A stretch of 64,000 nt of DNA from Vicinamibacterales bacterium (GCA_965246995.1 OZ252008.1:562323-626322); one strand, 5' to 3'; positions 45,021-61,733 are shown, numbered from the stretch's first letter. Program-made: numbers and translations. The notes: a model not told the origin generated them from the letters alone.

Positions 45021-46676
45021 CTAATCGCTCAGGCCGAAGGTGAAGACGACGTTGCCCGCGGCGATGCTGACGTACTGCTCGCCGTCCACGGAGTAGGTGA
45101 TCGGCGCGGCGTGCACCCTCGAGCCGACCGCCATGTGCCACAGCTCCTCGCCGCTCACCGCGTCGACGGCGAAGACGTAGCCGTCGACGGTCCCGCCGAA
45201 GACCAGATCGCCAGCCGTCGTCATCAGGCCCGAAGTCGAACGGGGCTGAATCGGATACTCCCACCGCACGTCGCCCGTCGCGGGGTCAATGGCGCGCACT
45301 GCGCTGTGGTAGGTGTCGGTCGGGGCCGCGTTCTCGCCGCCGCCTCCGGTGAACTGTTCGCCCTCGACGTAATCCTCGTCGCGGATGAAGTAGATCTGTT
45401 CTCCGTCGTACGCGTTGACGTAGAACAGCCCGGTGCGCGGGCTGAACGCCGGCGACCACCAGTTCGTGCCCCCGCCAATCGACGGCGCGACGAGTGTGCC
45501 TTCCAGCGACGGCTCCATGTTCGGCACGCGGATCGGCCGCCCGTTCTCGTCGAGCCCCTCGGCCCAGGTCTGCTTGGCGTACGGCTTGCCGACCAGGAAC
45601 TCGCCGGTCTCGCGGTCGAGTGTGTAGTAGAAGGCGTTGCGGTTGGCCCACATCATCACCTTCCGCATCTCACCCTCGTACATGATGTCGCCGAGGATCG
45701 GCACCTGGATGGCGTCCCAGTCGTGGATGTCGTGCGGCGTGAACTGGAAGTACCAGTCCATCTCGCCCGTCTCGCCGCTCAGCGCGAGCGCGGAGTCGCT
45801 GTACAGGTTGTCGCCCATGCGGACGTCGCCGTTCCAGTCGGGCCCGGGGTTGCCGGTACCCCAGTAGACGAGATCGAGGTCCGGGTCGTACGAGCCGGTG
45901 ATCCAGGTGGGTGATCCACCCGTCCGCCACGATTCGCCCGCCCAACTGTCGTTCCCCGGATCGTCCGGCCCCGGGATCGTGTGGGTGCGCCAGTTGCGCG
46001 TGCCGCTCTGCGCGTCATACGAATCGAGGAAGCCGCGGATGCCGAACTCGCCGCCGGCGATCCCGGTCACGACTTGATCCTTCACGATGAGCGGTGCGGC
46101 GGTCTTGGAGTAGCCCGCGCGATAGTCGGCTGCCGCGGTGCTCCAGAGCAGGTTGCCGCTGCGCGCGTCGATCGCCACCAGGCGCGCATCGAGCGTGCTC
46201 ATGTAGAGGGTCTCATCGAGGATGGCGACGCCCCGGTTGTTCCGGCCGCAGCAGATCCGCAGGTCGTCCGGCAGTTCGTGGTCGTAGCGCCAGTACTGCC
46301 GTCCCGTCGCGGCGTCGAGCGCGACGACGTTGCTCGGCGCCTCGGTGACGAACATGATGCCGTCGACGACCAGCGGCGTAGTTTCGGCGCGGTCGATCTC
46401 CGGTATCTGGTAGGCCCACTTCAGTTCGAGGTTCTGCACGTTGCGGCTGTGGATCTGCTCCAGCCCGCTGTAGCGCTGGCTGTCGAGGGTGCCGTTGTAC
46501 ATCAGCCAGTTCTCCGGCTCGTCGGCAGCGTTCAACAACCTTTCCCAAGTGACCGGCCGGAATGTCGACGCCCCGTCCGACTGGGCATTGAGGCCCACGA
46601 CCGCGACGCGATCCGCAACGGCGAACGCGACGGCCGCGACGGCGAGGCAGGCGATAAGCAGGGTAGTCCGCTTCAT
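45021..46676 (-). CDS. PQQ-dependent dehydrogenase (methanol/ethanol family quinoprotein)
   Basis: It has a signal peptide, NWLMYNGTLDSQRYSGL, the vicinal Cys pair in DDLRICCGRNNRGVA, and W-rich propeller repeats. 551 aa. Confidence 0.85.
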   Translation of the reverse strand: MKRTTLLIACLAVAAVAFAVADRVAVVGLNAQSDGASTFRPVTWERLLNAADEPENWLMYNGTLDSQRYSGLEQIHSRNVQNLELKWAYQIPEIDRAETTPLVVDGIMFVTEAPSNVVALDAATGRQYWRYDHELPDDLRICCGRNNRGVAILDETLYMSTLDARLVAIDARSGNLLWSTAAADYRAGYSKTAAPLIVKDQVVTGIAGGEFGIRGFLDSYDAQSGTRNWRTHTIPGPDDPGNDSWAGESWRTGGSPTWITGSYDPDLDLVYWGTGNPGPDWNGDVRMGDNLYSDSALALSGETGEMDWYFQFTPHDIHDWDAIQVPILGDIMYEGEMRKVMMWANRNAFYYTLDRETGEFLVGKPYAKQTWAEGLDENGRPIRVPNMEPSLEGTLVAPSIGGGTNWWSPAFSPRTGLFYVNAYDGEQIYFIRDEDYVEGEQFTGGGGENAAPTDTYHSAVRAIDPATGDVRWEYPIQPRSTSGLMTTAGDLVFGGTVDGYVFAVDAVSGEELWHMAVGSRVHAAPITYSVDGEQYVSIAAGNVVFTFGLSD

Positions 46677-46678
46677 GA

Positions 46679-47482
46679 CTAGTTATCCTCCTTGCGCAGC
46701 GAGAAGACGTAGGCGACCAGGTCATCCAGTTCCGCACCCGACCCCGAAACGGCGGGCATTGTCGAGTCGGTCACCCGCTCGACGGAGCGAACCTGGCTCT
46801 TGAGGAAATGCCACAGCCGCTCGTCCTCATCCATGATCCGGACCGAGAACGTGTCCTCGTTCATGCGGAGTCCCTCGACGCGTGAGCCATCCTCGCGAAC
46901 GATCCGCATCGTCCACCAGCGCGGGGTGACGTCGGCGTTCGGGTCGGTCAGCGCAGTCCGGATCTCGTCCGGTGTCAATCGTCCGCCGACATCCGACAGG
47001 TCCGGGCCGAGGCGGCCCCCGTCGCCGTTGACCATGTGGCATTGGCTGCAGTTCTGAGCCTCGTACGCCTGCGCTCCGCCGGACGCGTCGCCCGGCAGGT
47101 TGTAGTCGCTCGGGTCGAAGTTGAGCGAGTTGATGTAGGAGACGATCTGCCAGACGGCCTGATCCGACGCGCGGCTGCTAATGCCGATCATCGCGGTGTT
47201 GTCGATGCCGTCCTGGATCACCTCGAACATGCCCTGATCGGTGCTCGCATAGGTGAATTGCCCAATCGTCAGGTCGGGCGCGCCGGTCTCGTCGTTCCCC
47301 TTGGCGTCACGGCCATGACAGCGGCCGCACTGCGCACGGAAGAGCCGCTGACCTATTCGGGCGTCGACCGTGGTGTCATAGGGGTTTTCCTGCGCGGCGG
47401 CGGGAGTCGCGGCGATGCCGCTACCGCCGAAGGCAATCAGCCCGGCCGCGAGGATGTTGAAAGCCGTCAAGGGAGTCCGCAT
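46679..47482 (-). CDS. Dihaem c-type cytochrome, probable electron acceptor of the PQQ dehydrogenase
   Basis: Two CxxCH sites are present (CGRCH, CSQCH), with a signal peptide. Its stop lies 2 nt upstream of the dehydrogenase start. Confidence 0.8.
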   Translation of the reverse strand: MRTPLTAFNILAAGLIAFGGSGIAATPAAAQENPYDTTVDARIGQRLFRAQCGRCHGRDAKGNDETGAPDLTIGQFTYASTDQGMFEVIQDGIDNTAMIGISSRASDQAVWQIVSYINSLNFDPSDYNLPGDASGGAQAYEAQNCSQCHMVNGDGGRLGPDLSDVGGRLTPDEIRTALTDPNADVTPRWWTMRIVREDGSRVEGLRMNEDTFSVRIMDEDERLWHFLKSQVRSVERVTDSTMPAVSGSGAELDDLVAYVFSLRKEDN

Positions 47483-47602: not shown

Positions 47603-48106
47603 ATGAAGACCCTCCTGATTCTGCGGCACGCCAAGTCCAGGTGGAAGGATCGGGAGCAATCGGACCACGACCGCTCTCTCAACAAGCGGGGCAAGCGCGA
47701 TGCTCCCCGAATGGGACGCCTCGCGGCGGAGCACGGTCTCCGCCCGGACCTGGTCCTCAGTTCTACCGCCAAACGGGCCCGGGTCACGGCCGAGGCGGTG
47801 GCGAGTGAGGCTGCCTACCCCGGCACGGTCCAACTGGAACGGCGGCTCTACCTCGCCAACCCGTCCGAGATCATCGAGGTCATCCGCGAATCGGCCGGCG
47901 ATGCGGCCACCGTCATGGTGGTGGGCCACAATCCCGGTCTCGAGGAGTTGGTCGCCCGCTTCGGCGGCGCCGGCGAGCCGTTGCCCACCGCGGCACTCGC
48001 CGAGATCCATCTGGAGATCCCCGCCTGGTCCAGGCTGACGCTCCAGAGCCCGGCGACGCTCGCGAATCTCTGGCGCCCGAGAGACCTGGCCCCCGACGAA
48101 GACTGA
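47603..48106 (+). CDS. Histidine phosphatase superfamily protein (SixA-like)
   Basis: LLILRHAKS carries the catalytic RHA motif, and it continues ...LSSTAKRARVTAE...VVGHNPGLEELV. 167 aa. Confidence 0.8.
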   Translation: MKTLLILRHAKSRWKDREQSDHDRSLNKRGKRDAPRMGRLAAEHGLRPDLVLSSTAKRARVTAEAVASEAAYPGTVQLERRLYLANPSEIIEVIRESAGDAATVMVVGHNPGLEELVARFGGAGEPLPTAALAEIHLEIPAWSRLTLQSPATLANLWRPRDLAPDED

Positions 48107-48220
48107 ACCGCCCACGGCCGCGGATTGCCGACAGTCGCCGAGTGTGCACTGTCCGTTTGGGTGTAGAATTGATGTTAATAGAAGGGTGGCTTATATACCG
48201 CGTTGAGGAGGATCTGGACG

Positions 48221-51158
48221 ATGAGAAAGACTCTGACAATCGCGCTCAGCCTTGCATTCGCGCTAACGGTCACGGCGAGCGCTTTTGCGCAGGGCCGCCA
48301 GACCGGAACCATCGGTGGCACCGCGGTGGACGCCCAGGGGCTTTCGCTCCCCGGTGTGACGATTACGGTCAGTTCGCCTTCCATGCAGGGGATGCGCACG
48401 GCTGTCAGTGATATCAACGGCAACTACTCGCTGCCGCAGCTCCCGCCGGGTGTGTACGCGGTGGTTTTCACGCTTTCCGGCTTCGGCGATGTCGAGGAGA
48501 TAGCCACGGTGCCGCTTGGCGGCGAGGTCGGCGTGAACGCGGTCATGGCGCCCGGCGGCGTCACCGAGACGGTGCAGGTAGTAGGCGTCGTCCCGGCGGA
48601 AATCCAGACGACGGAGACCGCCTCGAACATGGTGGTCGATGAAGTGAACGCGTTGCCGATGGGTCGGTCGCCGTTCGCTATCGCCGCGATTCAGCCCGGT
48701 CTGAATACGAACACGCCGAATGGCGGGCAGCTCGCGATCAACGGCGCGTTCGCGTACGACAACGTCTACCTGGTGGACGGTGTCGATACGAACGACAACC
48801 TGTTCGGGACGTCGAACGGGCTCTATGTCGCCGACGCGATCGAGGAGACGCAGGTACTCACCTCCGGGATCTCCGCCGAGTACGGTCGGTTCTCCGGCGG
48901 CGTCGTCAACGTCATCACGAAGAGCGGCGGCAACACGTTCTCGGGCAGTTGGCGCACGAATCTCGACAACCCGACGTGGGAAGGGCTCAACCCCTACGAG
49001 GTGGAGAACGAGGTGGAGCGGGAGGACATCCTGAACCAGACGCATGAGGCGACGCTCGGCGGACCGATCGCACGTGACCGCCTCTGGTTCTTCTCCTCGT
49101 ACCGCCGCGCGCGGACCACCACCAGCGACAGTTTCGCGCAGACCGCCATCTCGTACAACCATAGGACCAACAACGACCGGAACCAGATCAAGCTGACCGC
49201 CACGCTCGCGCCGGGACACACGCTGTCCGGCCAGTACATGCGGAACCAGACGTCCCGGTTCGACCGCCCCACCTTCGGCTTCAGCATCACGCCGGACACG
49301 CAGAACGACGCGGGGCGGCCGAACGACCTGTATGTCACGACCTACCGCGGCAGCCTGAGCCAGAACGTCTTTGCGGAGGCCCAGGTGTCGCAGAAGCGGC
49401 AGGGCTTCCGGGGCGGCGGCGGCACCGAGACCGCCATCGGGTACTCACCCTTCATCACCCTGACGCAGCAGTTGGGCCACTTCAACGGGCCCTACTTTGA
49501 CGCAACGGACCCGGAAGATCGGAACAACCTGCAGGTGACGGGCAACGTCACCTGGTACAAGGCGACGGAGTCATTCGGTTCGCACAACATCAAGGTGGGC
49601 TTCGAGAGCTACCGCTCGACCCGGACCGGCGGCAACTCGCAGTCGTCGACCGGCTTCGTCTTCGACGCCGACTACAAGGTGGATGCGAACGGCGACCCGG
49701 TCCTGGTCGACAACCGGCTGATCCCGGTGTTCTCTCAGTTCGACTCATTGATCGAGGACTGGAGGCCGGCGCGCGGGGCAAGGATCAACATCAGCACCAG
49801 GTCGTTCTTCATCAACGACAACTGGGCGTTCAACGATTACCTCTCGTTCAACCTCGGCGTGCGGGGTGAGATGGTCACGGGCGAGTCGACGCCGGGGGAC
49901 ATAACAACCGTCGACACGCGCTCGATTGTCCCGCGCGTCGCCGCGTCACTGGACCCGCTGGGTGACGGCCGCTTCTCGATTCAGGCGACCTACAGCCACT
50001 ACTCCGGGAAGTACAGCGAGGCGCAGTTCGCGGAGAACACGAACGTCGGGAAGCCGAGCCTGCTGTACCGTGTCTACACGGGTCCGACGCACGAGTGCCC
50101 GGGCCTGCCGAACGCGACGGCAGCGGACTGCCCCGGACTCGACCCCAACAACTACTTCACGGTCTTCGGCTCCTTTCCGACGCAGAATGTCTTCGCCGAC
50201 GACCGGCTCAATTCGCCCGTCACCAAGGAGTTCACGCTGTCGAGCGGCGCGACGCTCGGGACACGCGGGTACTTCCAGGCGACCTACGTCCGCCGCCGCT
50301 CGGGTAGCTTCGTGGAGGATTACCAGGACCTGACGACCGGGACGACGACGCTCATGGATCCGGACACCGGGGAGGAGTTCGGCACGTTCACGAACCAGGT
50401 CTTCGCGAACCCCGGCGACCTGGGGGACGACGCGGACGTCCTGCAGCGGAACTACGACGGGCTGCAGTTCGAGGCCCGGTACCAGCTCTTCGATAGGCTG
50501 TTGCTGAACGGTTCCACGACGATCCAGCTCAACAGCGAGGGGAACTTCGACGGCGAAGGAACCAACCAGCCTGGCGTCTCGTCGGTCTACGGCGATTGGC
50601 CGGAAGTGACGCCGGCGGATCGGTTCTATCCGTGGGGCCGCCTCGACGACTACCAGAAGCACCGGGTCCGCGTCTGGGGGGATCTACACCCTCGGCATGG
50701 GCTTCATGGGAGACCTGGATGTCGGCGGTTTCTGGCGTTACGACTCGGCCGAGAACTACAGCCTCGCGTCGAGCGCCTTCCGAGTGAGTTCCGAACAGCA
50801 GGCGATCCTCGACGAGCTCGGCTACATCGATGGTCCCACGTCTCGGACGCTCTACTACGACTCGGGTCGCGGGTCGGAGCCCTACAACGGCGTGGGTCGG
50901 TTCGACCTGTCGCTCCACTACGACATCCCGGTCTGGCGGGACCTGCGGCCGTGGCTGAAGTTCGATTGGTACAACGTGACCAATAACGACAAGCTGGTCC
51001 TCTTCAACACGACCATTCGGCATGACTCGAGCGGCCCGACGGACGCGTTGGGGATCCCGACCATGTACACCGAAGGGATCAACTTTGGCGAAGCGACCTC
51101 AGCCGGCCACTACCCGTCGGCACGGTCGTTCCTGATTTCCTTGGGCCTCCGTTTCTAG
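48221..51158 (+). CDS. TonB-dependent receptor-like outer-membrane protein with an N-terminal carboxypeptidase-regulatory-like domain, interrupted by a 1-nt frameshift in a G6 tract (50676-50681)
   Basis: It has a signal peptide, GTIGGTAVDAQGLSLPGVTITV...INGNYSLPQLPPGVY (the CarboxypepD_reg pattern) and a plug region. The frame-2 ORF decays into low-complexity text after ...HRVRVWG. The frame-0 ORF (50697-51158) continues IYTLGMGFMGDLDVGGFWRYDS... and ends in the barrel-type ...LISLGLRF. Confidence 0.75.
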
Positions 51159-51182
51159 CCCAGCGTTCCGGTAGTTCGACGA

Positions 51183-51226
51183 CCCCCGGGGGGCGCCACG
51201 CGGGTGGCCTCCCGGGGTTTCGTCTG
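51183..51226 (+). terminator. Putative intrinsic terminator after the receptor gene
   Basis: CCCCCGGGGGGCGCCACGCGGGTGGCCTCCCGGGG forms a long GC hairpin (CCCCGGG/CCCGGGG plus GCCAC/GTGGC), followed by TTTCGTCTGT, a short U tract. Confidence 0.45.
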
Positions 51227-51369
51227 TACGGCGCGCGTAGGTTTGTTGACGCCGACCGCGAGGATGTAGTGTCGGCTACTGGTCCCGATCCGCCTTTTCG
51301 AATCGGAGGCGGGCCGGCGCGGTCTCGTCGGACCGACCCACAGTTGGGTCCAGCGAGAGGAGCATTGCC

Positions 51370-53574
51370 ATGAAAGGGCTGATCGCCCTTGTCGTCGTCG
51401 TCTTCACCGGCGCGTCGGCGTCTGCTGCTCCCCTGACCTGCGACCTGGGCCAATACACGGCGAAGGACGGGCTCGCGGTAACCGTCGAATCGGATGTGCT
51501 GAGCGTCGCGTGGGCCGGCGACGACGGCAGCGACCTGCGGATGCGTTTTGTCATCCAGGACGGGCAGCCGATCGTGCGGGAGCTGGCGATTCGCCGGCAG
51601 GGCGGCGCCTGGGCCACGCTCGGTCAGGATCTCACACCCGAATTCCATGTCACGAGCGGCGTCCGCCGGCTGTCGTACCAGCAGTCACGGCCGCTCGAGG
51701 GGACGGGCGTCGAAATCGACCAGGAGGTGATCGACAGAGAGAAGTGGTACGTCTTCTGGGACGCGCCGCTTCTCGTTCCCGGCGTGACCGAGGGCAGAAA
51801 TCCCCGGAACTGGGGTCTCCCGCGCTCGCCGGAGGAAATCCGTCACATGGATGCGTCGTTCGCCACCTCGTCGTGCAGCGTGAAGACGGATGGCGCGCGC
51901 CTGGAGGTGACCTTTCCGGGCCTGTCGATGGGCATCTTCGCCGGCAATCTGCGCTTCACGGTCTATCGCGGCACGAACCTCGTGCGGATGGAGGCCATCG
52001 CGATGACCGAGGAGGACTCGGTCGCCTACATCTACGAAGGGGGCTTGCGCGGCTTTTCGACCGACACGCTGTCGCGTGTGGTGTGGAACGACCTCGGCGG
52101 CAACGCGCAACAGTACGGGTTCGGCGGCGTGACGAACGACACGAGGGTCGCGGTGAGGGCCGCCAACCGCGTGCTGGTCGCAGAAGGCCAGGGCGGGTCG
52201 GTCGCGGCGTTTCCGCCGCCCCACGCCTTCTTCTGGACACGGGAAGTGGACATCAATCTCGGTTACGTGTGGTACCGGCACGACGAGGGTGACCAGTTCG
52301 GCATCGGCGTGCGGCAGCACGATCGTGAAGAAGACCCGCGCTACGTCGAGAACTTCGCGTTGTACAACGCGCCGCCGGGCACCATGCAGCGGATGGCGAT
52401 GTACTTCTACGCCGGGACCGGCCCCGCGGAGGCCACACGCCAGGATGTGCTCGCCTTCACCTACGGTGACAAGTTCAAGGCGGTCCCGGGCTACCAGACG
52501 TTCGTTAACCACTTCCACCTCCGGTTCACCGAGCGGCAGCGCGCGCTCGGGTCGCTGGACTACAAGTTCCCGGACCTGGAGGCGATGAAGGCGGTGGGCC
52601 TCAACATCGTCGGGTTGAGCGATTTCCACGGCGACATGAATCCGAACGACCCTGGCCCGCTGCGGTTCGATGACTGGCGCGACTACGGCCTGGCGTCGCA
52701 GAAGGCCTCCGACGCCGACTTCCTCGTGACGCCCTGGGAAGAGCCGAGCGCGTACTTCGGCGGACACTTCAACACGATGTTCCCCAAGGTCGTGTACTGG
52801 TCGAAGGTGCGCGAGCCGGGGCAGCCGTACACCGAGCACGACCCCACCTACGGGACGGTGTACCACGTCGGCAACACGGATGACATGCAGCAGCTCCTGG
52901 ACGACGAGGACGGCTACTGGTTCCATGCGCACCCGCGCACCAAAGGCACGACGGGGTACCCGGATCACCTCTTCGACACGTCGTATCTGCGCAACGACCG
53001 CTACCTGGGCGTCGCCTTCAAGCCGGGCATGGGCCAGGATCTGTCGGAAAAGCGGATGTGCGAGTATCGCTGCTTCGACGCGGTGGACACGATGAACAAC
53101 CTCCTGGCCGGCTCCGGTCTGCGGCCGAAGTACATCATCGCGGACGTCGATACGTATCAGAAGGGCCCGAACGACGACATCTATGCGAACTTCCCGGTCA
53201 ACTACGTCAAGCTGGAGCGGTTGCCGAGGGCGGACGAGGACTGGAGCCCGATCCTGACCGCGCTCCGGAACGGCGACTTCTTCGTGACGACGGGCGAGGT
53301 TCTGATTACGAACCATGCTGTCGAAGGCACTGGGAACACGCGGACGTTCGGGGCCGACGTGCAGTGGACGTACCCGCTTGAATTCGTCGAAGTGGTCTGG
53401 GGCGATGGCACGAACATCGACCGGCGCATTGTCTCCGCCACCGATCTGCCTCCGTTCGGATCCCGGCGGTTCGAGATCCCGTTCGACGCCACCGGGAAGG
53501 CGTGGGTCCGCTTTGCCGTTTGGGACTCGGCCGGTAACGGCGCCTTCGTGCAGCCGATGTGGGTGAAGCCATGA
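51370..53574 (+). CDS. Secreted protein of unknown function, paralogue A (734 aa), with His-rich metal-hydrolase-like motifs in the C-terminal half
   Basis: It has a signal peptide. The motifs FVNHFHLRF, GLSDFHGD, GGHFNTMFP and WFHAHPRTKGTTGYPD suggest a metal-dependent (PHP-like?) fold. No confident family assignment is possible. Confidence 0.6.
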   Translation: MKGLIALVVVVFTGASASAAPLTCDLGQYTAKDGLAVTVESDVLSVAWAGDDGSDLRMRFVIQDGQPIVRELAIRRQGGAWATLGQDLTPEFHVTSGVRRLSYQQSRPLEGTGVEIDQEVIDREKWYVFWDAPLLVPGVTEGRNPRNWGLPRSPEEIRHMDASFATSSCSVKTDGARLEVTFPGLSMGIFAGNLRFTVYRGTNLVRMEAIAMTEEDSVAYIYEGGLRGFSTDTLSRVVWNDLGGNAQQYGFGGVTNDTRVAVRAANRVLVAEGQGGSVAAFPPPHAFFWTREVDINLGYVWYRHDEGDQFGIGVRQHDREEDPRYVENFALYNAPPGTMQRMAMYFYAGTGPAEATRQDVLAFTYGDKFKAVPGYQTFVNHFHLRFTERQRALGSLDYKFPDLEAMKAVGLNIVGLSDFHGDMNPNDPGPLRFDDWRDYGLASQKASDADFLVTPWEEPSAYFGGHFNTMFPKVVYWSKVREPGQPYTEHDPTYGTVYHVGNTDDMQQLLDDEDGYWFHAHPRTKGTTGYPDHLFDTSYLRNDRYLGVAFKPGMGQDLSEKRMCEYRCFDAVDTMNNLLAGSGLRPKYIIADVDTYQKGPNDDIYANFPVNYVKLERLPRADEDWSPILTALRNGDFFVTTGEVLITNHAVEGTGNTRTFGADVQWTYPLEFVEVVWGDGTNIDRRIVSATDLPPFGSRRFEIPFDATGKAWVRFAVWDSAGNGAFVQPMWVKP

Positions 53575-55838
53575 TGAAGACCACGATCACATCTGTCGCG
53601 TCCGTACTCTCCGTGACCGCGCTGGCCGCAGCTACCGTTGGGTTCGGCGCGTCGCCGGCGTATGCCGAGGCGCTGAACTGCAGTCTGACCGGATACCAGG
53701 CATCGCCAGGGCTGACCGCCGCCGTGGCCGATGACACACTGGCCCTCACCTGGGACGGGGACCCTGGCCAGGAAGTACGGCTCAGGCTGATGATCTCGGG
53801 CGGCGCGCCCACGATTCTGGACCTCGCGGTGCGGCGCAAGGGCGCGCGGTGGGCCACGCTGGTCAGCAACGCGAGGCCTGAATTCCGGGTAGCCTCCGGT
53901 CTGCGCCGGATCACCAATCAGCAACTGCGGCCGCTCCAGGCGCTCGGCGTCGACATCACGGCGGAGATCATCGACGAGGAAAAGTGGGACGCGTTCTGGG
54001 ACGCGCCCTTGAACCTCCCGGGCGGCGACGCGGCCCACGGAAACTCGACACCCCCGCTCGAGGGCCTCGATCATCAGCCGGGGCTGCCGCGCCTGCCGGA
54101 AGAGGTCACGCGCGCCACCGCGACGTATCAGGCGCAGGGATGCGAAGTGACGACCAACGGGGCGCGCCTTGAAGTGACCTTCCCCGGCGTCGAGTTGGGC
54201 GTCTTTGCCGGCCGGCTGCAATACACGGTGTTCCGGGGCACGAACCTGATCCGGCAGGAGGTCATTGCCAAGACAGACGAACCGTCGGTGGCCTACAAGT
54301 ACGAGGCCGGTCTCAGCGGGTTGGCGATTCAGCCGACGTCCCGGATGGTATGGCGCGACATCTCGAATCTCTGGCAGGACTATCAGTTCGGCGGCGCTCT
54401 GAACGAGAGCCCGGTGTCTCTGAAATCGAGCAACCGGCTGGTCGTTGCCGAAGTTCCAGGGGGGGCTATTGCGGCGTTCCCGCCGCCGCACAATTTCTTT
54501 TGGGCCCGCGAACTCGAGTTCAACCTCGGGTACACCTGGTATCGCAAGGATAGCGAGACGTCGTTCTCGTTCGGCGTCCGACAGCCCGACGGCGAGGAAG
54601 AGCCGACAGGCGTGGGCCGCGGAGCCGAGGATATCCGGCAGAACTCCGCGCTCCGCAGCGCGAGGCCGGGCACCTGGCAGCGGATGCCGGTCTTTTTCTA
54701 TGTCAGCGCCGGATCCGGCGAGGCCACGCTGGAGTCGGCGCTGGCCTTCACCCGCCAGGACACCTTCAAGCCGCTCGAAGGCCACAAGGTCATGGCGACC
54801 CACTTTCATACCCGATTCGTGCGGCGGCTGCAGGCATCCGGCATGGACACGAGGATTCGCGAGCTCGATGCGATGAAGGCGATCGGGATCAACATCCTGG
54901 GGCTGGGCGAGAGTTCGCGCGGCCCCGATCGCCTGAAGAACCAGGCTGATTACTTCGAAGGCGCCCGGCGACATTCCGACAAGGACTTCCTGATCATGCC
55001 GAGCGAGGAGGATTTTTCCGGCAATCTCGGCGGGCACAACGACGTCCTGCCGTCGAAGCCGGTCTTCTGGACGCAAGGCCGCGCCGATGGCCAAGCGTTT
55101 GTCGAGGAGCATCCCACGTACGGCACGGTCTATCACGTCGGCAACCCGGCGGACATGATGGAGATGGCCAAGCGGGAGAACATGCTCATCTACATGGCCC
55201 ATCCGCGCTCGAAGGGCTCGACCGGATTTCCGGACGCGATCAAGGACACGGCCCACTTTCGGCACGAGCACTATCGGGGGATCGGCTGGCGCTGGGGGAT
55301 GGGCATCGACGGGTCGGAGCGGCGCCTGTGCGAGCTTCGCTGCCTGGACCTGTTGGACGACATGAACAACTGGGTCGCCGACCAACCCACCCCGGCCAAG
55401 TATCTGCATGCCATTTCAGAGACCTATCAGAAGGGACCGGGGGACGACATCTACGCGAACAATCCGGTCAGCTACGTGAAGATCGATCAGCTCCCCGGGT
55501 CCGACGACTGGAGCCCGATCATCGACGCCATGAAGCGCGGCGACTACTTCGTGACCTCGGGAGAGGTGTTGATCCCCTCCTACGGCATCGAGGGAACTGG
55601 CGCCGACAGCACGATCATCGCCGAAGTGGAGTGGACCTTTCCGCTGGAATTCGTCGAGGTCGTCTGGGGAGACGGGCAGACGACTGACCGGCAGATCGTC
55701 TCGGCGACCGACCTGTTGCCGTTCGGCCGCCAACGGTTCGAAATCCCGTTCGACGCCACCGGGAAGAAATGGGTGCGTTTCGCCGCGTGGGACTCGGCAG
55801 GTAACGGCGCACTCGTGCAGCCGATCAAGCTCCAGTGA
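53571..55838 (+). CDS. Secreted protein of unknown function, paralogue B (755 aa)
   Basis: Its ATGA overlaps the stop of paralogue A. It is colinear with A (for example FPGVELGVFAGRLQYTVFRGTNLIRQE against FPGLSMGIFAGNLRFTVYRGTNLVRME, and the same C-terminal ...WVRFAAWDSAGNGALVQP). Confidence 0.6.
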   Translation: MMKTTITSVASVLSVTALAAATVGFGASPAYAEALNCSLTGYQASPGLTAAVADDTLALTWDGDPGQEVRLRLMISGGAPTILDLAVRRKGARWATLVSNARPEFRVASGLRRITNQQLRPLQALGVDITAEIIDEEKWDAFWDAPLNLPGGDAAHGNSTPPLEGLDHQPGLPRLPEEVTRATATYQAQGCEVTTNGARLEVTFPGVELGVFAGRLQYTVFRGTNLIRQEVIAKTDEPSVAYKYEAGLSGLAIQPTSRMVWRDISNLWQDYQFGGALNESPVSLKSSNRLVVAEVPGGAIAAFPPPHNFFWARELEFNLGYTWYRKDSETSFSFGVRQPDGEEEPTGVGRGAEDIRQNSALRSARPGTWQRMPVFFYVSAGSGEATLESALAFTRQDTFKPLEGHKVMATHFHTRFVRRLQASGMDTRIRELDAMKAIGINILGLGESSRGPDRLKNQADYFEGARRHSDKDFLIMPSEEDFSGNLGGHNDVLPSKPVFWTQGRADGQAFVEEHPTYGTVYHVGNPADMMEMAKRENMLIYMAHPRSKGSTGFPDAIKDTAHFRHEHYRGIGWRWGMGIDGSERRLCELRCLDLLDDMNNWVADQPTPAKYLHAISETYQKGPGDDIYANNPVSYVKIDQLPGSDDWSPIIDAMKRGDYFVTSGEVLIPSYGIEGTGADSTIIAEVEWTFPLEFVEVVWGDGQTTDRQIVSATDLLPFGRQRFEIPFDATGKKWVRFAAWDSAGNGALVQPIKLQ

Positions 55839-55875: not shown

Positions 55876-57363
55876 TCAGCCCGCCGTCTTCACGTCCTCG
55901 TACAGCAGGACGCCCTGTTCGTCGTAGAAACGGAACGCCGCGGTCGGCGTCTCGCCGGGCGTGACGACGACATTCAGGAAACCGCCGGTCGGCTCGTCGT
56001 ACGTGTAGTACTGCATCACGAGCGCGTCGGGGTCGTTGGAGTCCGGGTCGCCCGGCGGCCGCCCGACACGGGAGTTGGCGTCGACGAGGGCGCCGGTCGA
56101 GAACTCTTCGAAGCCGGATGGGTCGAGCGAGTGGTACTGCCAGTGCCGGTCGCCGGTGACGATGTAGAGGTGCTTCTCAAGGAAGCCGTTCTCCGTCAGC
56201 CAGTCAACCAGGGCGTCGCGCTCCGCCCGGAAGCCGAGCGGGTTCGAGTGGTTGTCCCGCTTGGCCGGGTCGTGTCCCTCCGCCGCCCGTCCCGCCTGGT
56301 TGGCGTCGTCCGGGCCGATCATCGGGGTCGGTGAGATCAGGATCTTGAACGTCGCGTCGCTCGCGAGCAGCGTCTCCTTGAACCAGGCGAGCTGCTCGGC
56401 GCCCCAGAGCGTCTTGTCGGGCCCCGGCTCCATCATGTTCGCGCTCCGGTAGTCGCGTCCCTCGACCAGCCAGATCTGGAGATCCCGGCTGACGCGGTGC
56501 GTTCGGTAGGTCACCGGGTCGGGGTCGTTCGGGTCGGCCACCGGCACCTGCTCGAGGAAGATGCGACGTCCGAGTTCGGGGAGCGGCGCGACGTCGGTCG
56601 TGTTGTCGCAGTCGTTGAAGCGGTAGTCGTGATCGTCCTTCTGCCAGTACGTCGGCGTGTCCGCGAAGAAGTCGATGAAACGCTGCCGGCCGAGCTGTTC
56701 ATGCCACTTCCTGCGCATCGTGGGCGCGGTGTCGGCCCGCCCGTCGTACGGCGCGTCGTAGTAGACGTTGTCGCCGGTCGCGATGAAGAAGTCGGGCTCG
56801 AGGGCCAGCATCGACACGAGGCCCGGGAACCCGAGTTCCTTGTCGGGCCCGGTGTACATCCGGTTCGGGTTGTTGTAGAACTGGTGATAGTTCATCCCGG
56901 TGACGACGGTGAAGCTGGTTTGCGCCTCCGCGTCCGGACCCGGGTGGGTAGCGAACGAGCGGGTCGGTCCGCTCTCGGCGTTGTCGGGGTTAGGGCCGTA
57001 CAGGACACGGTAGAGGTACTCGGTCCCGGGCGTCAGGCCCGCGATCTGCGCCTTGACGATGTGGTCGTTCTCCGCCGTCGCCTCCAGCCAGGGGGTGACC
57101 CGCGGCGCCGCAAACTCCGGGTTGGTCGTAATCTCGAACCGCACGACGCCTGCCATGCCCGGCAGGTCGCCATCGACCCATCCCGACTTCGCGGTGAGGC
57201 GTGTCTGAAGGACGATGGAGGTATCGGTGGCCTCGCCGGCGATCTCCCCCTGCCCGTTCGTCATCAGGATCTCCACCGGCTCCGGCGCGCTCGTGCATGC
57301 CGCGGCCGCCACTGCAACCGCCGCAATCAGGTGTCTCTTCGTAGTCGCCATCGGAACCTCCAT
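55876..57363 (-). CDS. PhoD-like alkaline phosphatase/phosphodiesterase (metallophosphatase)
   Basis: It has a lipoprotein-like signal (AAVAVAAAAC). FIATGDNVYYD...WQKDDHDYRFNDC...HSNP... are PhoD-family motifs. The likely start is the ATG at 57351. Confidence 0.8.
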   Translation of the reverse strand: MEVPMATTKRHLIAAVAVAAAACTSAPEPVEILMTNGQGEIAGEATDTSIVLQTRLTAKSGWVDGDLPGMAGVVRFEITTNPEFAAPRVTPWLEATAENDHIVKAQIAGLTPGTEYLYRVLYGPNPDNAESGPTRSFATHPGPDAEAQTSFTVVTGMNYHQFYNNPNRMYTGPDKELGFPGLVSMLALEPDFFIATGDNVYYDAPYDGRADTAPTMRRKWHEQLGRQRFIDFFADTPTYWQKDDHDYRFNDCDNTTDVAPLPELGRRIFLEQVPVADPNDPDPVTYRTHRVSRDLQIWLVEGRDYRSANMMEPGPDKTLWGAEQLAWFKETLLASDATFKILISPTPMIGPDDANQAGRAAEGHDPAKRDNHSNPLGFRAERDALVDWLTENGFLEKHLYIVTGDRHWQYHSLDPSGFEEFSTGALVDANSRVGRPPGDPDSNDPDALVMQYYTYDEPTGGFLNVVVTPGETPTAAFRFYDEQGVLLYEDVKTAG

Positions 57364-58399: not shown

Positions 58400-60018
58400 C
58401 AGCCTGTCGGACTTAGGCGCGGCAAACGCGCGTGGAAGCGACTTGGCACCTGTTTGAACGACGCCCTGTGTCTCTGTGCCGGGAGGGCCGCTTCGACCGA
58501 AACGGGGACTGTATCCTGGCCATCGGTCGCTGACGGCGCCTGGAGGTCTTTCTGACGCCTCTGGTGGGTCGCGAACACGCCGAGTTCCGCCCCGTATAGC
58601 CCCGTCATGCCAGCCTGAGGTTGTGCACGCGTCGGCAGTTATACGCCAGCGTTACCAAGGCCCATTCGCCCTCCACCTTCTCAAGACCCCGCAGCAGAAA
58701 CTGCCGGAAGCCCATCGCCTGCTTCACGATCCCGAACACCGGCTCCACCGTCTGCTGGCGCAAACGGTAATGCGCCCGGTGCTCCGGCAGTGCCATCTTC
58801 TCCTGCATCGACTTGATCCAGTCCGCCTGCGGCTCCTTCGCCAGCTGCTCCGGCGGCTCCGGTCGGAAGTCGTGCCGGCGCCGTTGGCCTTCCGCCCCCG
58901 TCGCCACCAACACCTCCACACCGCGACCTGCCAGTTGCGACACCTCGCTGCCCGTCGCGTAGCCACTGTCCGCCAGTACCCGATCCGCCGCGCCCACCGC
59001 CGTCGGTATCGCGTCCACGTCCGCCACCAACTCGTTGCGGTCGCTCGCGCACACGCTCACCCGCGACCCCAACACCAACTGACTGCCGTCGGCATCCACC
59101 ACCGCCTGCGCGTTGTATGCCTGGCGGTACTCATGGCGCCGGCTCTTGCGCATCAGCGCACTGTCCGCATCCGTCAGGTTGATCTGCGCCTTCGCCTCCG
59201 GCGCGTCCCTCGGCGGCGTGATGTGCCGACCCTTGCGCGATCCCGCACGCCGCTCCCGCGCCGCCACCGTGCGCTCGTACTCCGCCCGCTCCGCGTCCGC
59301 ACGCGCCTGCGCACGCCGTTCCAACTCCGCGCACGCACGGTCCAGCTTCGCCCGTAGCGTCTCGCGCCGCGACAACTCCTCCGGCAGACCCTGTGGGTCC
59401 GGCACGTCGTCCGTGTCGGCGTGCTCCGCCTGATCCAACAACCCCTCGATCTCGCCTCGCAACTGCTCGCGCAACGCCCCCGCACGGTCGTAGCGGATGC
59501 TGTTGCGCTTGTTCGCGTTCGCGTCCACCTTCGTCCCGTCCACGCTCACCGTCCCAACACGCAGCAACTGCAGCTCCTTCGCCAGCAGCAGTACCTGCAG
59601 GAACGCCTCCGCTACCGCTTCGAAGTTGCTGCGCCGGAACGTGCAGATCGTGTCGTGGTCCGGATGACAGTTCGCCGCCACGTACCGAACGCCAATGTCC
59701 CGATACGTCGCCCGCTCGATCCGACGCGAGCCGAAGATCCCGTTCGCGTAGCAGTACACCAGCAACGCCAGCATCATCCGCGGGTGATACTGCGCCGATC
59801 CGGTGCCCCGTTCGTTCACCTGGAACCGCTCCAGCGGCACCCGTTCCACCGCCTCCACCACGAAGTGCGCCAGATCGTCCTCAGGCAGCCAATCGCGCAG
59901 GTCCGGCGGCAGCAGATACAACTGCGACTGGTGCCGCTGTACAAAATTCGGCATCTACTTCTACCCCCTCAACTCGACAAGCCCCATTATAAAACCCGGG
60001 CCTAAGTCCGACAGGCTG
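58400..60018 (-). mobile_element. IS1182-family insertion sequence, copy 2 (1619 bp, a different element from copy 1)
   Basis: It has perfect 19-bp inverted termini, CAGCCTGTCGGACTTAGGC ... GCCTAAGTCCGACAGGCTG. It is flanked by CTAG (58396-58399) and CTAG (60019-60022). Confidence 0.88.
58605..59954 (-). CDS. IS1182-family DDE transposase
   Basis: MPNFVQRHQSQLYLLPPDLRDWLPEDDLAHFV...YHPRMMLALLVYCYANGIFGSRRIERATYRDIGVRYVAANCHPDHDTICTFRR...VSVDGTKVDANAN. Confidence 0.88.
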   Translation of the reverse strand: MPNFVQRHQSQLYLLPPDLRDWLPEDDLAHFVVEAVERVPLERFQVNERGTGSAQYHPRMMLALLVYCYANGIFGSRRIERATYRDIGVRYVAANCHPDHDTICTFRRSNFEAVAEAFLQVLLLAKELQLLRVGTVSVDGTKVDANANKRNSIRYDRAGALREQLRGEIEGLLDQAEHADTDDVPDPQGLPEELSRRETLRAKLDRACAELERRAQARADAERAEYERTVAARERRAGSRKGRHITPPRDAPEAKAQINLTDADSALMRKSRRHEYRQAYNAQAVVDADGSQLVLGSRVSVCASDRNELVADVDAIPTAVGAADRVLADSGYATGSEVSQLAGRGVEVLVATGAEGQRRRHDFRPEPPEQLAKEPQADWIKSMQEKMALPEHRAHYRLRQQTVEPVFGIVKQAMGFRQFLLRGLEKVEGEWALVTLAYNCRRVHNLRLA

Positions 60019-60022
60019 CTAG

Positions 60023-61733
60023 CCCGGATTTCTCACCGTTGTAGATACAAGAGACTGCCTGTGATGGCGTAAAGTGTTGTGGCCGCAATACTTTCACACC
60101 AGACACGGAGGCAGCCTCTTGTCCACACAGTGTACGCCAATCCAACTTGAATTTCCGCGTGTCGGCCGCCGCCGACTGGTGGCGCGTTTCGGTGGCGGGC
60201 GGATTACCTCCAACGCGGGCGCGCTATTACTGCAGGCCGTGGAAGCGTGCACGCAGGTGTGCCGGCGTGCGGCGCGGTGCTTCCAGGATCACCGGGACGG
60301 GCGGTGGGTGGAGCACACGGTCGAGGAGTTAGTGACGCAGCGGGTGTTTGGCCTGGCGCTGGGCTACGAAGACCTGAACGACCACGACACGCTGCGGCGC
60401 GACGCGCTATTGGCGGCGGTGGTGGGCAAGGCGGACCCGACCGGGGCATCCCGGGTGCGGGCGGCGGACCGCGGGTCGGCCCTGGCGGGCAAGAGCACGT
60501 TGAACCGGCTGGAGTTGGCGGGGCCTGACGCGGAGACGGACCGCTACAAGAAGGTGAGCTATGACCAGGCGGCGCTCGATGCGCTGCTGGTCGACCTGTT
60601 CATCGAGGCCCACCCGCAGCCGCCCGTGCGCATCGTGCTCGATGTCGATGCCACCGACGACCCGCTGCACGGCCAACAGGAAGGGCGCTTTTTCCACGGC
60701 TACTACCGGCACTACTGCTATCTGCCGCTGTATGTCTTCTGCGGCGCGCACGTGCTGTGTGCACGGCTCCGGCCGGCGAACATCGATGCGGCGGCCGGCG
60801 TGGTCGATGAACTGGCGTGGATCGTGGACCGCGTGCGGCAGGCGTGGCCGACGGTGGCCATTCTGGTGCGCGGCGACTCGGGCTTCTGCCGGGACGCGTT
60901 GCTGAACTGGTGCGAGGCGCACCAGGTGGACTATCTCATCGGGGTCGCCAAGAACGACCGCCTCAAGGCGCAACTGGCGCCGGCGATGGTGCAGGCCCAG
61001 GCCCAGTGCCAGGCGAGCGGTCAGCCGGCCCGGGTGTTCGCCGACTTCGGCTATCGCACGCGCAAGAGCTGGAGCCGGGAGCGGCGGGTCGTCGGCAAGG
61101 CCGAGCACCTGCCGGCCGGGCCGAATCCGCGCTTCGTGGTGACCTCGCTGCCGGCAGACCGCGTCCCGGCCCAGCCGCTGTATGAGGACCTGTATTGCGC
61201 CCGCGGCGATATGGAGAACCGCATCAAGGAGCAGCAACTGGCCTTGTTTGCCGACCGCACCAGCAGTGCCACCCTGCGGGCCAACCAGTTGCGCCTCTAC
61301 TGGTCGACCTTGGCCTACGTCCTGTTGCACGCGCTCCGCAGCCGGGCTTTGGCAGGCACCCGGCTCGCCCGCGCCCAATGCGACACCTTACGCCTCCGGC
61401 TGCTCAAGGTCGGCGCCCATATCCGTGTCACCGCACGCTGCGTCTGGGTCGCGTTGACCGACTATCTGCCTGACGCCGACCTGTTCATCCTCGCCGCCAA
61501 CCGCTTGCACCAAGCGCGCGCACCCGCCTGACGCCCCAGTCCAACGCCAGACCACGTCCGCAGCTACCCGGTGGACTACCCCGGGGCCGGCCCGCTGCGC
61601 CCGACACGCCGCCGTCGGTGTCGCAACCGCCCCGTCCGCCGCCTTCCAACCTCTCCCGCGCGTCCGTGCTGGACCTCCTGCGCCGTAAACTCACCGCTTC
61701 AGCCTCGCGCCGGGTGGCTGTGAGAAATCCGGG
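60023..61733 (+). mobile_element. IS1380-family insertion sequence, copy 2 (1711 bp)
   Basis: The inverted termini are CCCGGATTTCTCAC ... GTGAGAAATCCGGG. It is flanked by CTAG (60019-60022) and CTAG (61734-61737). Confidence 0.85.
60074..61531 (+). CDS. IS1380-family DDE transposase
   Basis: ARFGGGRITSNAGALLLQAVE...VFGLALGYEDLNDHDTLRRD...LAGKSTLNRLE...IVLDVDATDDPLHG. Confidence 0.88.
   Translation: MLWPQYFHTRHGGSLLSTQCTPIQLEFPRVGRRRLVARFGGGRITSNAGALLLQAVEACTQVCRRAARCFQDHRDGRWVEHTVEELVTQRVFGLALGYEDLNDHDTLRRDALLAAVVGKADPTGASRVRAADRGSALAGKSTLNRLELAGPDAETDRYKKVSYDQAALDALLVDLFIEAHPQPPVRIVLDVDATDDPLHGQQEGRFFHGYYRHYCYLPLYVFCGAHVLCARLRPANIDAAAGVVDELAWIVDRVRQAWPTVAILVRGDSGFCRDALLNWCEAHQVDYLIGVAKNDRLKAQLAPAMVQAQAQCQASGQPARVFADFGYRTRKSWSRERRVVGKAEHLPAGPNPRFVVTSLPADRVPAQPLYEDLYCARGDMENRIKEQQLALFADRTSSATLRANQLRLYWSTLAYVLLHALRSRALAGTRLARAQCDTLRLRLLKVGAHIRVTARCVWVALTDYLPDADLFILAANRLHQARAPA

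Follow-up and report, generated by a model that had tools for sequence, protein, structure and literature searches.

The window analysed here is a 64,000-nucleotide stretch from a Vicinamibacterales bacterium (GCA_965246995.1 OZ252008.1:562323-626322), in which two tandem paralogous genes, A (51370-53574) and B (53571-55838), lie downstream of a gene for a TonB-type outer-membrane receptor. We propose that A and B are periplasmic, Sec-exported metal-dependent hydrolases of a divergent CehA/McbA type, coupled to the receptor and divided in specificity; we put the probability of this reading at about 0.55. The receptor would import material on which A and B then act. The bond attacked by a metal-activated water would be of the ester type (phospho-, acyl- or carbamoyl-ester) and the substrate oligomeric and probably glycan-derived, with the A, B and C subtypes of the family described below supplying different specificities towards one substrate class.

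An earlier reading of the same DNA (the original prediction) had described two colinear, ATGA-overlapping open reading frames (ORFs), and both were found on the plus strand where it had placed them. Gene A, taken from the ORF listing, encodes 734 amino acids (aa), and its ATG is preceded by GAGAGGAG. Gene B encodes 755 aa counted from its ATG, while the ORF lister begins at a GTG at 53559. The TGA of gene A overlaps the ATG of gene B at 53571-53574 (context GCC ATG ATG AAG), and from this overlap gene B is predicted to be translationally coupled to gene A. The paralogy of the pair, previously estimated by eye at about 45% identity, was borne out by BLASTP over the full length (50% identity, 66% positives, 748 columns, E = 0). 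Identity is 51% in the N-terminal part, 48% in the barrel and 70% in the C-terminal sandwich, which makes up the last 94 residues. By eye, both N-termini have the look of Sec signal peptides, with ASA/A in A and AYA/E in B. The exact window proteins recur in several long-read metagenome-assembled genomes (MAGs).

A search for named relatives left the family without a Pfam assignment. Pfam gave nothing at E<=1 with either A or B and nothing relevant at E<=10 in 57 family members, and PDB sequence searches with gene A and with the 57-member profile gave no match. The C-terminal half matches one model in the NCBIfam library, NF038032 (CehA/McbA family metallohydrolase), which has a curated cutoff of 80 bits and a length of 315 positions. 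Gene A reaches 28.5 bits over residues 588-733 (E = 1e-6), and gene B 32.9 bits over residues 458-752 (model positions 45-312 of 315, E = 4.5e-8), both below the cutoff. The model is matched by 56 of the 57 members (best E = 1.4e-10), again all under the curated cutoff. Similarity to the whole domain becomes visible through two homologues. P0264, 38% identical to A (homology E = 7e-112), covers positions 8-314 of 315 at 52.6 bits (E = 4.5e-14), and a Hymenobacter protein, 31% identical to B (homology E = 8e-87), covers positions 22-314 at 55.6 bits (E = 5e-15); neither reaches 80 bits. Since these two proteins span nearly the whole model, it follows by transitivity that the barrel and terminal sandwich of A and B are a metallohydrolase domain of a divergent CehA/McbA type. 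This reproducible sub-threshold match agrees with the metal-dependent hydrolase guessed at in the original prediction, but the specific label attached to it, "PHP-type", fared less well (see below).

P0264 also has a C-terminal extension (residues 725-873) that resembles parts of DUF4965/'glutaminase family' proteins (E 1e-12 to 4e-7), which are found on Bacteroides, Parabacteroides, Hymenobacter and Chondrinema plasmids.

Searches from the other side gave little more. With B and P0264 as queries, tblastn searches of plasmids found neither cehA nor mcbA and gave no link to annotated NF038032 members. When the full-length family profile was compared by hhalign with a Croceicoccus CehA/McbA protein, the C-terminal 105 columns alone aligned, with a probability of 7%. 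A genuine CehA/McbA-family domain had no relative in the PDB by sequence, and the whole superfamily is structurally uncharacterised within reach of the sequence and structure searches made.

The biochemistry of the named relatives is in keeping with a metal centre in A and B. According to a review, a predicted polymerase/histidinol-phosphatase-like (PHP-like) domain of McbA contains the essential residues His467, His477 and His504, and CehA needs His313, His315, His453 and His495 (PMC8292978). The only characterised homologues are carbaryl and carbofuran hydrolases, and A and B might likewise be small-molecule ester, carbamate or amide hydrolases; they would then serve the detoxification or catabolism of aromatic carbamates or esters of natural origin, and no polymer would take part. 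CehA hydrolyses physostigmine, a natural carbamate, and a TonB receptor is encoded upstream of cehA in Sphingomonas sp. CDS-1 (PMC8292978), both of which would suit such a role, as would the amidase and alpha/beta-hydrolase genes that are frequent neighbours of the family. The similarity, however, is remote and under the NF038032 cutoff, and the Croceicoccus protein has a PD40 propeller at its N-terminus instead of the beta-supersandwich of A and B. Furthermore, thousands of copies and multi-paralogue arrays in oligotrophic soil phyla are more easily reconciled with a natural substrate that is common than with a rare toxin. We therefore regard the small-molecule role as improbable.

The domain architecture comes from modelling gene A with AlphaFold2 on an alignment of 57 sequences (full-length pLDDT 87.6, pTM 0.90). 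A signal peptide of about aa 1-19, assigned by eye, is followed by a beta-supersandwich (aa 20-365; 51427-52464), an alpha/beta region forming a His/Asp barrel (aa 366-640; 52465-53289) and an Ig-like beta-sandwich (aa 641-734; 53290-53571), all on the plus strand. The original prediction had seen no recognisable motif in the N-terminal half. This half is modelled confidently as a galactose-mutarotase-like beta-supersandwich, a fold seen in GH36, GH38 and PL26 enzymes and in YidC. It is conserved equally with the rest of the protein, with R99, R100, W126, W130, D131, H285, R291, R303, R315 and E320 invariant. Two cysteines (C24 and C169) are invariant and two more (C564 and C568) almost so, a pattern that would fit an oxidising compartment.

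The loop at aa 287-296 of gene A (window about 52228-52257) is the sole internal segment with a pLDDT below 50, and it holds the invariant residues F287, F288 and R291. In the model, this conserved flexible loop could be a lid over the active site.

The structural matches raise the question of whether A and B form a new carbohydrate-active family, glycoside hydrolases or lyases of GH36-like layout in which carboxylates rather than a metal would catalyse the attack on a polysaccharide. In Foldseek, the full-length model matched GH36 alpha-galactosidases best (6jhp and 4fnp; E = 4e-9 to 8e-9, about 880 columns, the whole chain). GH101, the PL26 exo-rhamnogalacturonan lyase, GH38, the YidC periplasmic domain (P1) and galactose mutarotase came next, the whole set including GH36 ranging from E = 4e-9 to 5e-5, and the beta-supersandwich is common to all these matches. 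The C-terminal part gave weak matches to GH29 and to a DUF4832 protein, which extend over barrel and sandwich, and many barrel carboxylates are invariant (D367, D448, E458, D557, D573, D602 and D603). The gene contexts add some hints of a glycan substrate. A member on the Hymenobacter volaticus plasmid NZ_CP095068.1 (75924-78008) has GH92 and GH97 genes downstream on the same strand; it is the single family member found on any PLSDB plasmid and shows the clearest carbohydrate-type context seen. A PcRGLX-like gene belongs to the paralogue island L001/L007, and distant members are fused to DUF4861, DUF4350, Laminin_G_3 or a DUF4965-like segment. Against a carbohydrate-active family, the TM-scores were only 0.19-0.26 with a root-mean-square deviation (rmsd) above 17 A (TM 0.26 and rmsd 21 A for the superposition on 6jhp/4fnp), and the likeness is therefore one of domain order and of the supersandwich and does not extend to the catalytic part. 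Histidines such as those of the invariant HxH and HP motifs typify metal centres, the barrel has its homologue in a metallohydrolase domain, and no CAZy-type Pfam or NCBIfam model is matched. A carboxylate-dependent glycosidase or lyase is therefore distinctly unlikely in our judgement.

The candidate active site of the proposed hydrolases was delineated from 57 homologues, 30 of type A and 27 of type B (gene A numbering). H381-x-H383 and H521-P522-R523 are invariant or nearly so, and H381, H383, E458, H466, H521, D557, D602 and D603 are kept in both types. In gene A, the putative active-site set comprises H381, H383, D418, H420, E458, H466, H519, H521, D557, D592, D594, D602 and D603. Gene B keeps the core H/H/E/H/H/D/D but has Ser or a gap for H420 (depending on the alignment), Met for H519, Ile for D592 and Glu for D594. 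The His/Asp motifs quoted in the original prediction are present in the sequence, with the correction that FHGD belongs to gene A alone; gene B has GESSRGPD at the same place.

Three of these positions separate the types. Position 420 is His in 30 of 30 type-A sequences and never His in type B; most type-B sequences have Gly or a gap there, and the window gene B has Ser or a gap. Position 519 is His in type A (30/30) and Met in type B, and position 592 Asp in type A (30/30) and Ile in type B; the same substitutions occur in all 27 type-B homologues examined. A further type, C, keeps H420 and has M519 and A592, and a Bryobacterales type has Q519 and E592. We infer that the triad H420/H519/D592 forms an extra metal or substrate site in A alone. 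As A keeps the triad, B has replaced it and both keep the core, the pattern fits two specificities used together, and A and B would not be redundant. The ratio of nonsynonymous to synonymous substitution rates (dN/dS) is 0.157 for A (against a 94%-identical orthologue) and 0.126 for B (against a 91%-identical orthologue), which shows purifying selection on both. That B is a decaying copy was ruled out by its dN/dS of 0.126 and by the large clade in which its substitutions are fixed.

The fold of the barrel was also compared with that of PHP enzymes. In type A, residues resembling metal ligands follow one another on predicted strands in the order H381-x-H383, D418-x-H420, E458, H466, H521-P and G-x-D557-x-S. 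A greedy, non-significant hhalign pairing sets H381/H383 against H7/H9, D418/H420 against D39/H40, E458 against E73 and D557 against D192 of YcdX. The final D-x-H of PHP enzymes is D-x-S in the A/B family, and type B also has no H420. The PHP label could not be confirmed by any of the searches made. PHP (PF02811) has no Pfam match at E<=1 in A or B and none at E<=10 in the 57 members. The hhalign comparison of a barrel profile of 87 sequences with a YcdX profile gave a probability of 1.0% (E = 0.052), the YcdX profile being shallow (homologues at least 79% identical), and a single-sequence comparison of the barrel with YcdX was likewise not significant. A separate model of residues 366-734 (pLDDT 87.7) found no PHP structure among the best 50 Foldseek matches in PDB and BFVD; these consisted of Ig-like sandwiches and low-TM GH29, glycopeptidase and DUF4832 entries, so that the barrel is structurally unplaced.

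The receptor gene directly upstream (48203..51158, plus strand; Pfam CarboxypepD_reg and OMP_b-brl_4) is read in two frames, 48203-50986 and 50697-51158. The frame changes in a G6 run at 50676-50681, and deletion of one G gives the continuous sequence ...HRVRVWGIYTLGMGF... In one further assembly of the species (L089) the gene encodes an uninterrupted 981 aa, and in another (L090) it falls into three pieces. The frame change is thus more likely a homopolymer error of long-read sequencing than the mark of a pseudogene. The spacer between receptor gene and gene A is 211 nucleotides (nt) long and holds no plus-strand ORF of at least 100 aa. It contains a GC-rich hairpin (51184..51217, plus strand) followed by a weak U tract, UUUCGUCUG; the fold of the RNA from 51159-51240 has an energy of -45.7 kcal/mol (z = -2.3 against shuffles). 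A consensus promoter and terminator scan performed at chance level and did not call the hairpin, whose role may be partial termination or RNA processing.

The link to a TonB receptor claimed in the original prediction recurs in other genomes. We considered 79 non-redundant loci, namely 83 loci minus two duplicates and those without a called family ORF, plus the window. A co-directional CarboxypepD_reg-type receptor lies directly upstream (gap <400 nt) in 11 of the 79, against a background of 33 receptors among 1,017 ORFs (about 3%) in the same neighbourhoods. Multi-copy arrangements likewise occur in 11/79 loci, with tandem arrays of up to five copies. While the receptor linkage is thus a recurrent property of the family, the other partner named in the original prediction, the phosphatase PhoD, is not.

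A PhoD-family phosphatase gene (55876-57363, minus strand; Pfam PhoD 2.4e-19, PhoD_N 2e-10) converges on gene B, an arrangement also present in the same-species L089 and L090; it is not shown to be part of the A/B unit. A short gene for a SixA-like histidine phosphatase (47603-48106, plus strand) stands just ahead of the receptor gene and is kept in L089 and L090. From this setting, one may suppose that A and B are PHP-type phosphoesterases which, under phosphate limitation, act together with PhoD and the SixA-like phosphatase to free phosphate from organophosphates or phosphorylated polymers after import. Most PHP-family enzymes of known function are phosphoesterases, and the parallel between the type-A motif order and the YcdX ligands, seen in the greedy hhalign pairing, would agree with such a role. 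Elsewhere in the family, a phmmer search found one other PhoD context (L002/L003), with a split PhoD gene at a distance of 4 kb from a family copy of 83% identity, and a PhoA-type phosphatase occurs near one type-B copy.

Most of the comparative evidence speaks against phosphate scavenging. In tblastn, homologues of the window PhoD were found in 0 of 83 related loci, and none in the closest orthologous locus (L001, 94% identical), which has no phosphatase gene at all; PhoD as a conserved locus partner is ruled out by this count together with the single other PhoD context. Four upstream regions have no common 8-mer or Pho-box-like repeat, a weak test, made without a reference Pho box of Acidobacteriota. 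PhoD linkage being absent elsewhere and the upstream regions sharing no motif, the phosphate-utilisation reading rests on one species. Moreover, the searches gave PHP membership no support, and the nearest characterised relatives cleave carbamate esters, not phosphoesters. We consider phosphate scavenging unlikely, and the polymer- or organophosphate-utilisation locus with PhoD put forward in the original prediction is not upheld. As a practical correction for this window, the PhoD neighbour is unfit for inferring the function of A and B.

The remaining genes around the pair complete the local picture. In L089 and L090, the order is His_Phos_1, receptor, A, B, PhoD (minus strand), ion channel and YdjM. 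Further upstream, a gene for a PQQ-dependent dehydrogenase with its cytochrome c partner (45021-47482, minus strand) is kept in both assemblies. Two DDE transposase genes (DDE_Tnp_1/DUF772 and DDE_Tnp_1_4), at 58605-59954 (minus strand) and 60074-61531 (plus strand), lie between the ion-channel and YdjM-family genes. Since the latter two genes are adjacent without transposases in L089 and L090, the transposases were inserted strain-specifically, at a distance of about 3 kb from the locus.

L001 and L005, two loci of 94% identity, have A and B in the same order. In L001, the gene for a 26%-identical receptor is found 3 kb upstream; next come a divergent alpha/beta-hydrolase fusion gene, four paralogues in tandem (A, B, B', A') and then the PcRGLX-like gene. 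On a metagenomic contig (L086:1-12909), a receptor gene heads a run of five tandem paralogues, of types C, B, B, B and C. Another island (L001/L004 and L007; OZ253576.1, about 2.31-2.35 Mb, on a Vicinamibacterales chromosome) has six copies in about 26 kb, with a PcRGLX-like (PL26-like) gene interspersed among them. Proteins of about 610 aa, here called cluster c3, are encoded beside family genes in 9 loci (L014, L016, L017, L034, L052 and others; for example L017:14226-16073). The arrangement receptor, family gene, c3 is frequent, and a gene of L001 (7088-9814, minus strand) joins c3 to an alpha/beta-hydrolase domain. Cluster c3 has no match in Pfam, NCBIfam or PDB and no copy in the window.

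The family is large. A word-indexed search returned 2,305 homologues for A and 1,469 for B, and an exhaustive HMMER scan at E<=0.001 gave 1,920 clusters at 50% identity, 378 of them with E<=1e-30. Genome matches come chiefly from Vicinamibacterales, Bryobacterales and Terriglobia, with further hosts among the Opitutaceae and other Verrucomicrobiota, the Phycisphaerae, one Myxococcota MAG and the Hymenobacter plasmid. The phyla represented include Acidobacteriota, Verrucomicrobiota, Planctomycetota and Bacteroidota. When every ORF of 150 aa or more in the collected loci was searched with a local HMM, no remote relatives outside the family came to light. Across all sources, the only name found was "hypothetical protein", in agreement with the original prediction that the family is uncharacterised. 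Its nearest family is named but poorly understood, and with A and B below the cutoff of that family, placement in a well-characterised family was obtained in part. The family is a divergent unnamed branch of a named, poorly understood superfamily, with a distinctive N-terminal supersandwich and conserved active-site subtypes.

Several points weigh against receptor-coupled metal-dependent hydrolysis by A and B. The window proteins score 28-33 bits where NF038032 demands 80, no metal-dependent barrel appears among the Foldseek matches of the C-terminal model, and hhalign against YcdX is not significant. The clustering of the conserved residues in space is assumed. The CehA of Rhizobium sp. AC100 has been called metal-independent in one review (PMC13594046). 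No adjacent receptor is found in 68 of the 79 loci, the upstream receptors are only 26-35% identical among themselves, and a strong hairpin stands between receptor gene and gene A, so that their co-transcription is conjectural. The neighbours are heterogeneous (amidases, S9/S33 hydrolases, an OPT transporter, sulfatase/FGE pairs and kinases), which makes a glycan substrate one option among several. Finally, the whole family is known from sequence and predicted models alone.

We rank ester cleavage on a glycan-derived oligomer first among the possible reactions, ahead of phosphoester cleavage, glycosidase or lyase activity and, last, the hydrolysis of a small-molecule carbamate or ester. The first choice is an informed guess from the chemistry of the nearest relatives and the carbohydrate-type shell. 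A broader and more tentative idea, which we hold to be somewhat unlikely, is that the family is a new class of TonB-receptor-coupled periplasmic enzymes combining a glycosidase-like shell with a His-rich metal centre. Arrays of A, B and C would then jointly dismantle a common natural polymer, for example a phosphorylated or esterified glycan, and CehA and McbA would be recent offshoots. If true, soil Acidobacteriota would owe a central part of their carbon or phosphorus turnover to a new enzyme family.

Few Vicinamibacterales and Bryobacterales have been cultured although both are abundant in soil, and many of the enzymes they export are without an assigned function. Identification of the substrate would allow thousands of 'hypothetical' genes to be annotated at once and would point to the natural role behind the CehA/McbA pesticide hydrolases; it might also reveal a nutrient-acquisition route in oligotrophic soils. 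Nothing found so far is mechanistically surprising, and the interest lies in a family that is large and ecologically widespread.

A and B can be compared with four known systems. In Sus-like polysaccharide utilisation loci, a SusC-type receptor is paired with an adjacent SusD-like gene, and the window locus is without that pairing, gene A directly following a receptor gene of the CarboxypepD_reg/OMP_b-brl_4 type. The candidate metal ligands of type A follow the YcdX order along the predicted strands, apart from a final His that is read as Ser; typical PHP enzymes, however, have no large beta domains, whereas the A/B barrel is flanked by two. GH36 and the other supersandwich-barrel-sandwich glycosidases (GH31, GH97 and GH101) show the same three-domain order as A and B; the A/B barrel, however, is not detectably a glycosidase barrel, and its conserved residues are histidine-rich and resemble those of a metal centre. 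The closest likeness is to CehA (Rhizobium sp. AC100 and sphingomonads) and McbA (Pseudomonas spp.), which like A and B are exported proteins of about 750-800 aa (McbA 769 aa) with a homologous barrel and C-terminal sandwich. The invariant H381, H383, H466 and H521 of A and B would be candidate equivalents of the histidines that these enzymes need, and the receptor upstream of gene A recalls the one found upstream of cehA in one strain. At the N-terminus, the supersandwich of A and B takes the place of the beta-propeller of the Croceicoccus CehA/McbA-family protein. The known CehA/McbA enzymes are encoded by single xenobiotic genes on mobile elements, whereas the A/B family is organised in chromosomal paralogue arrays.

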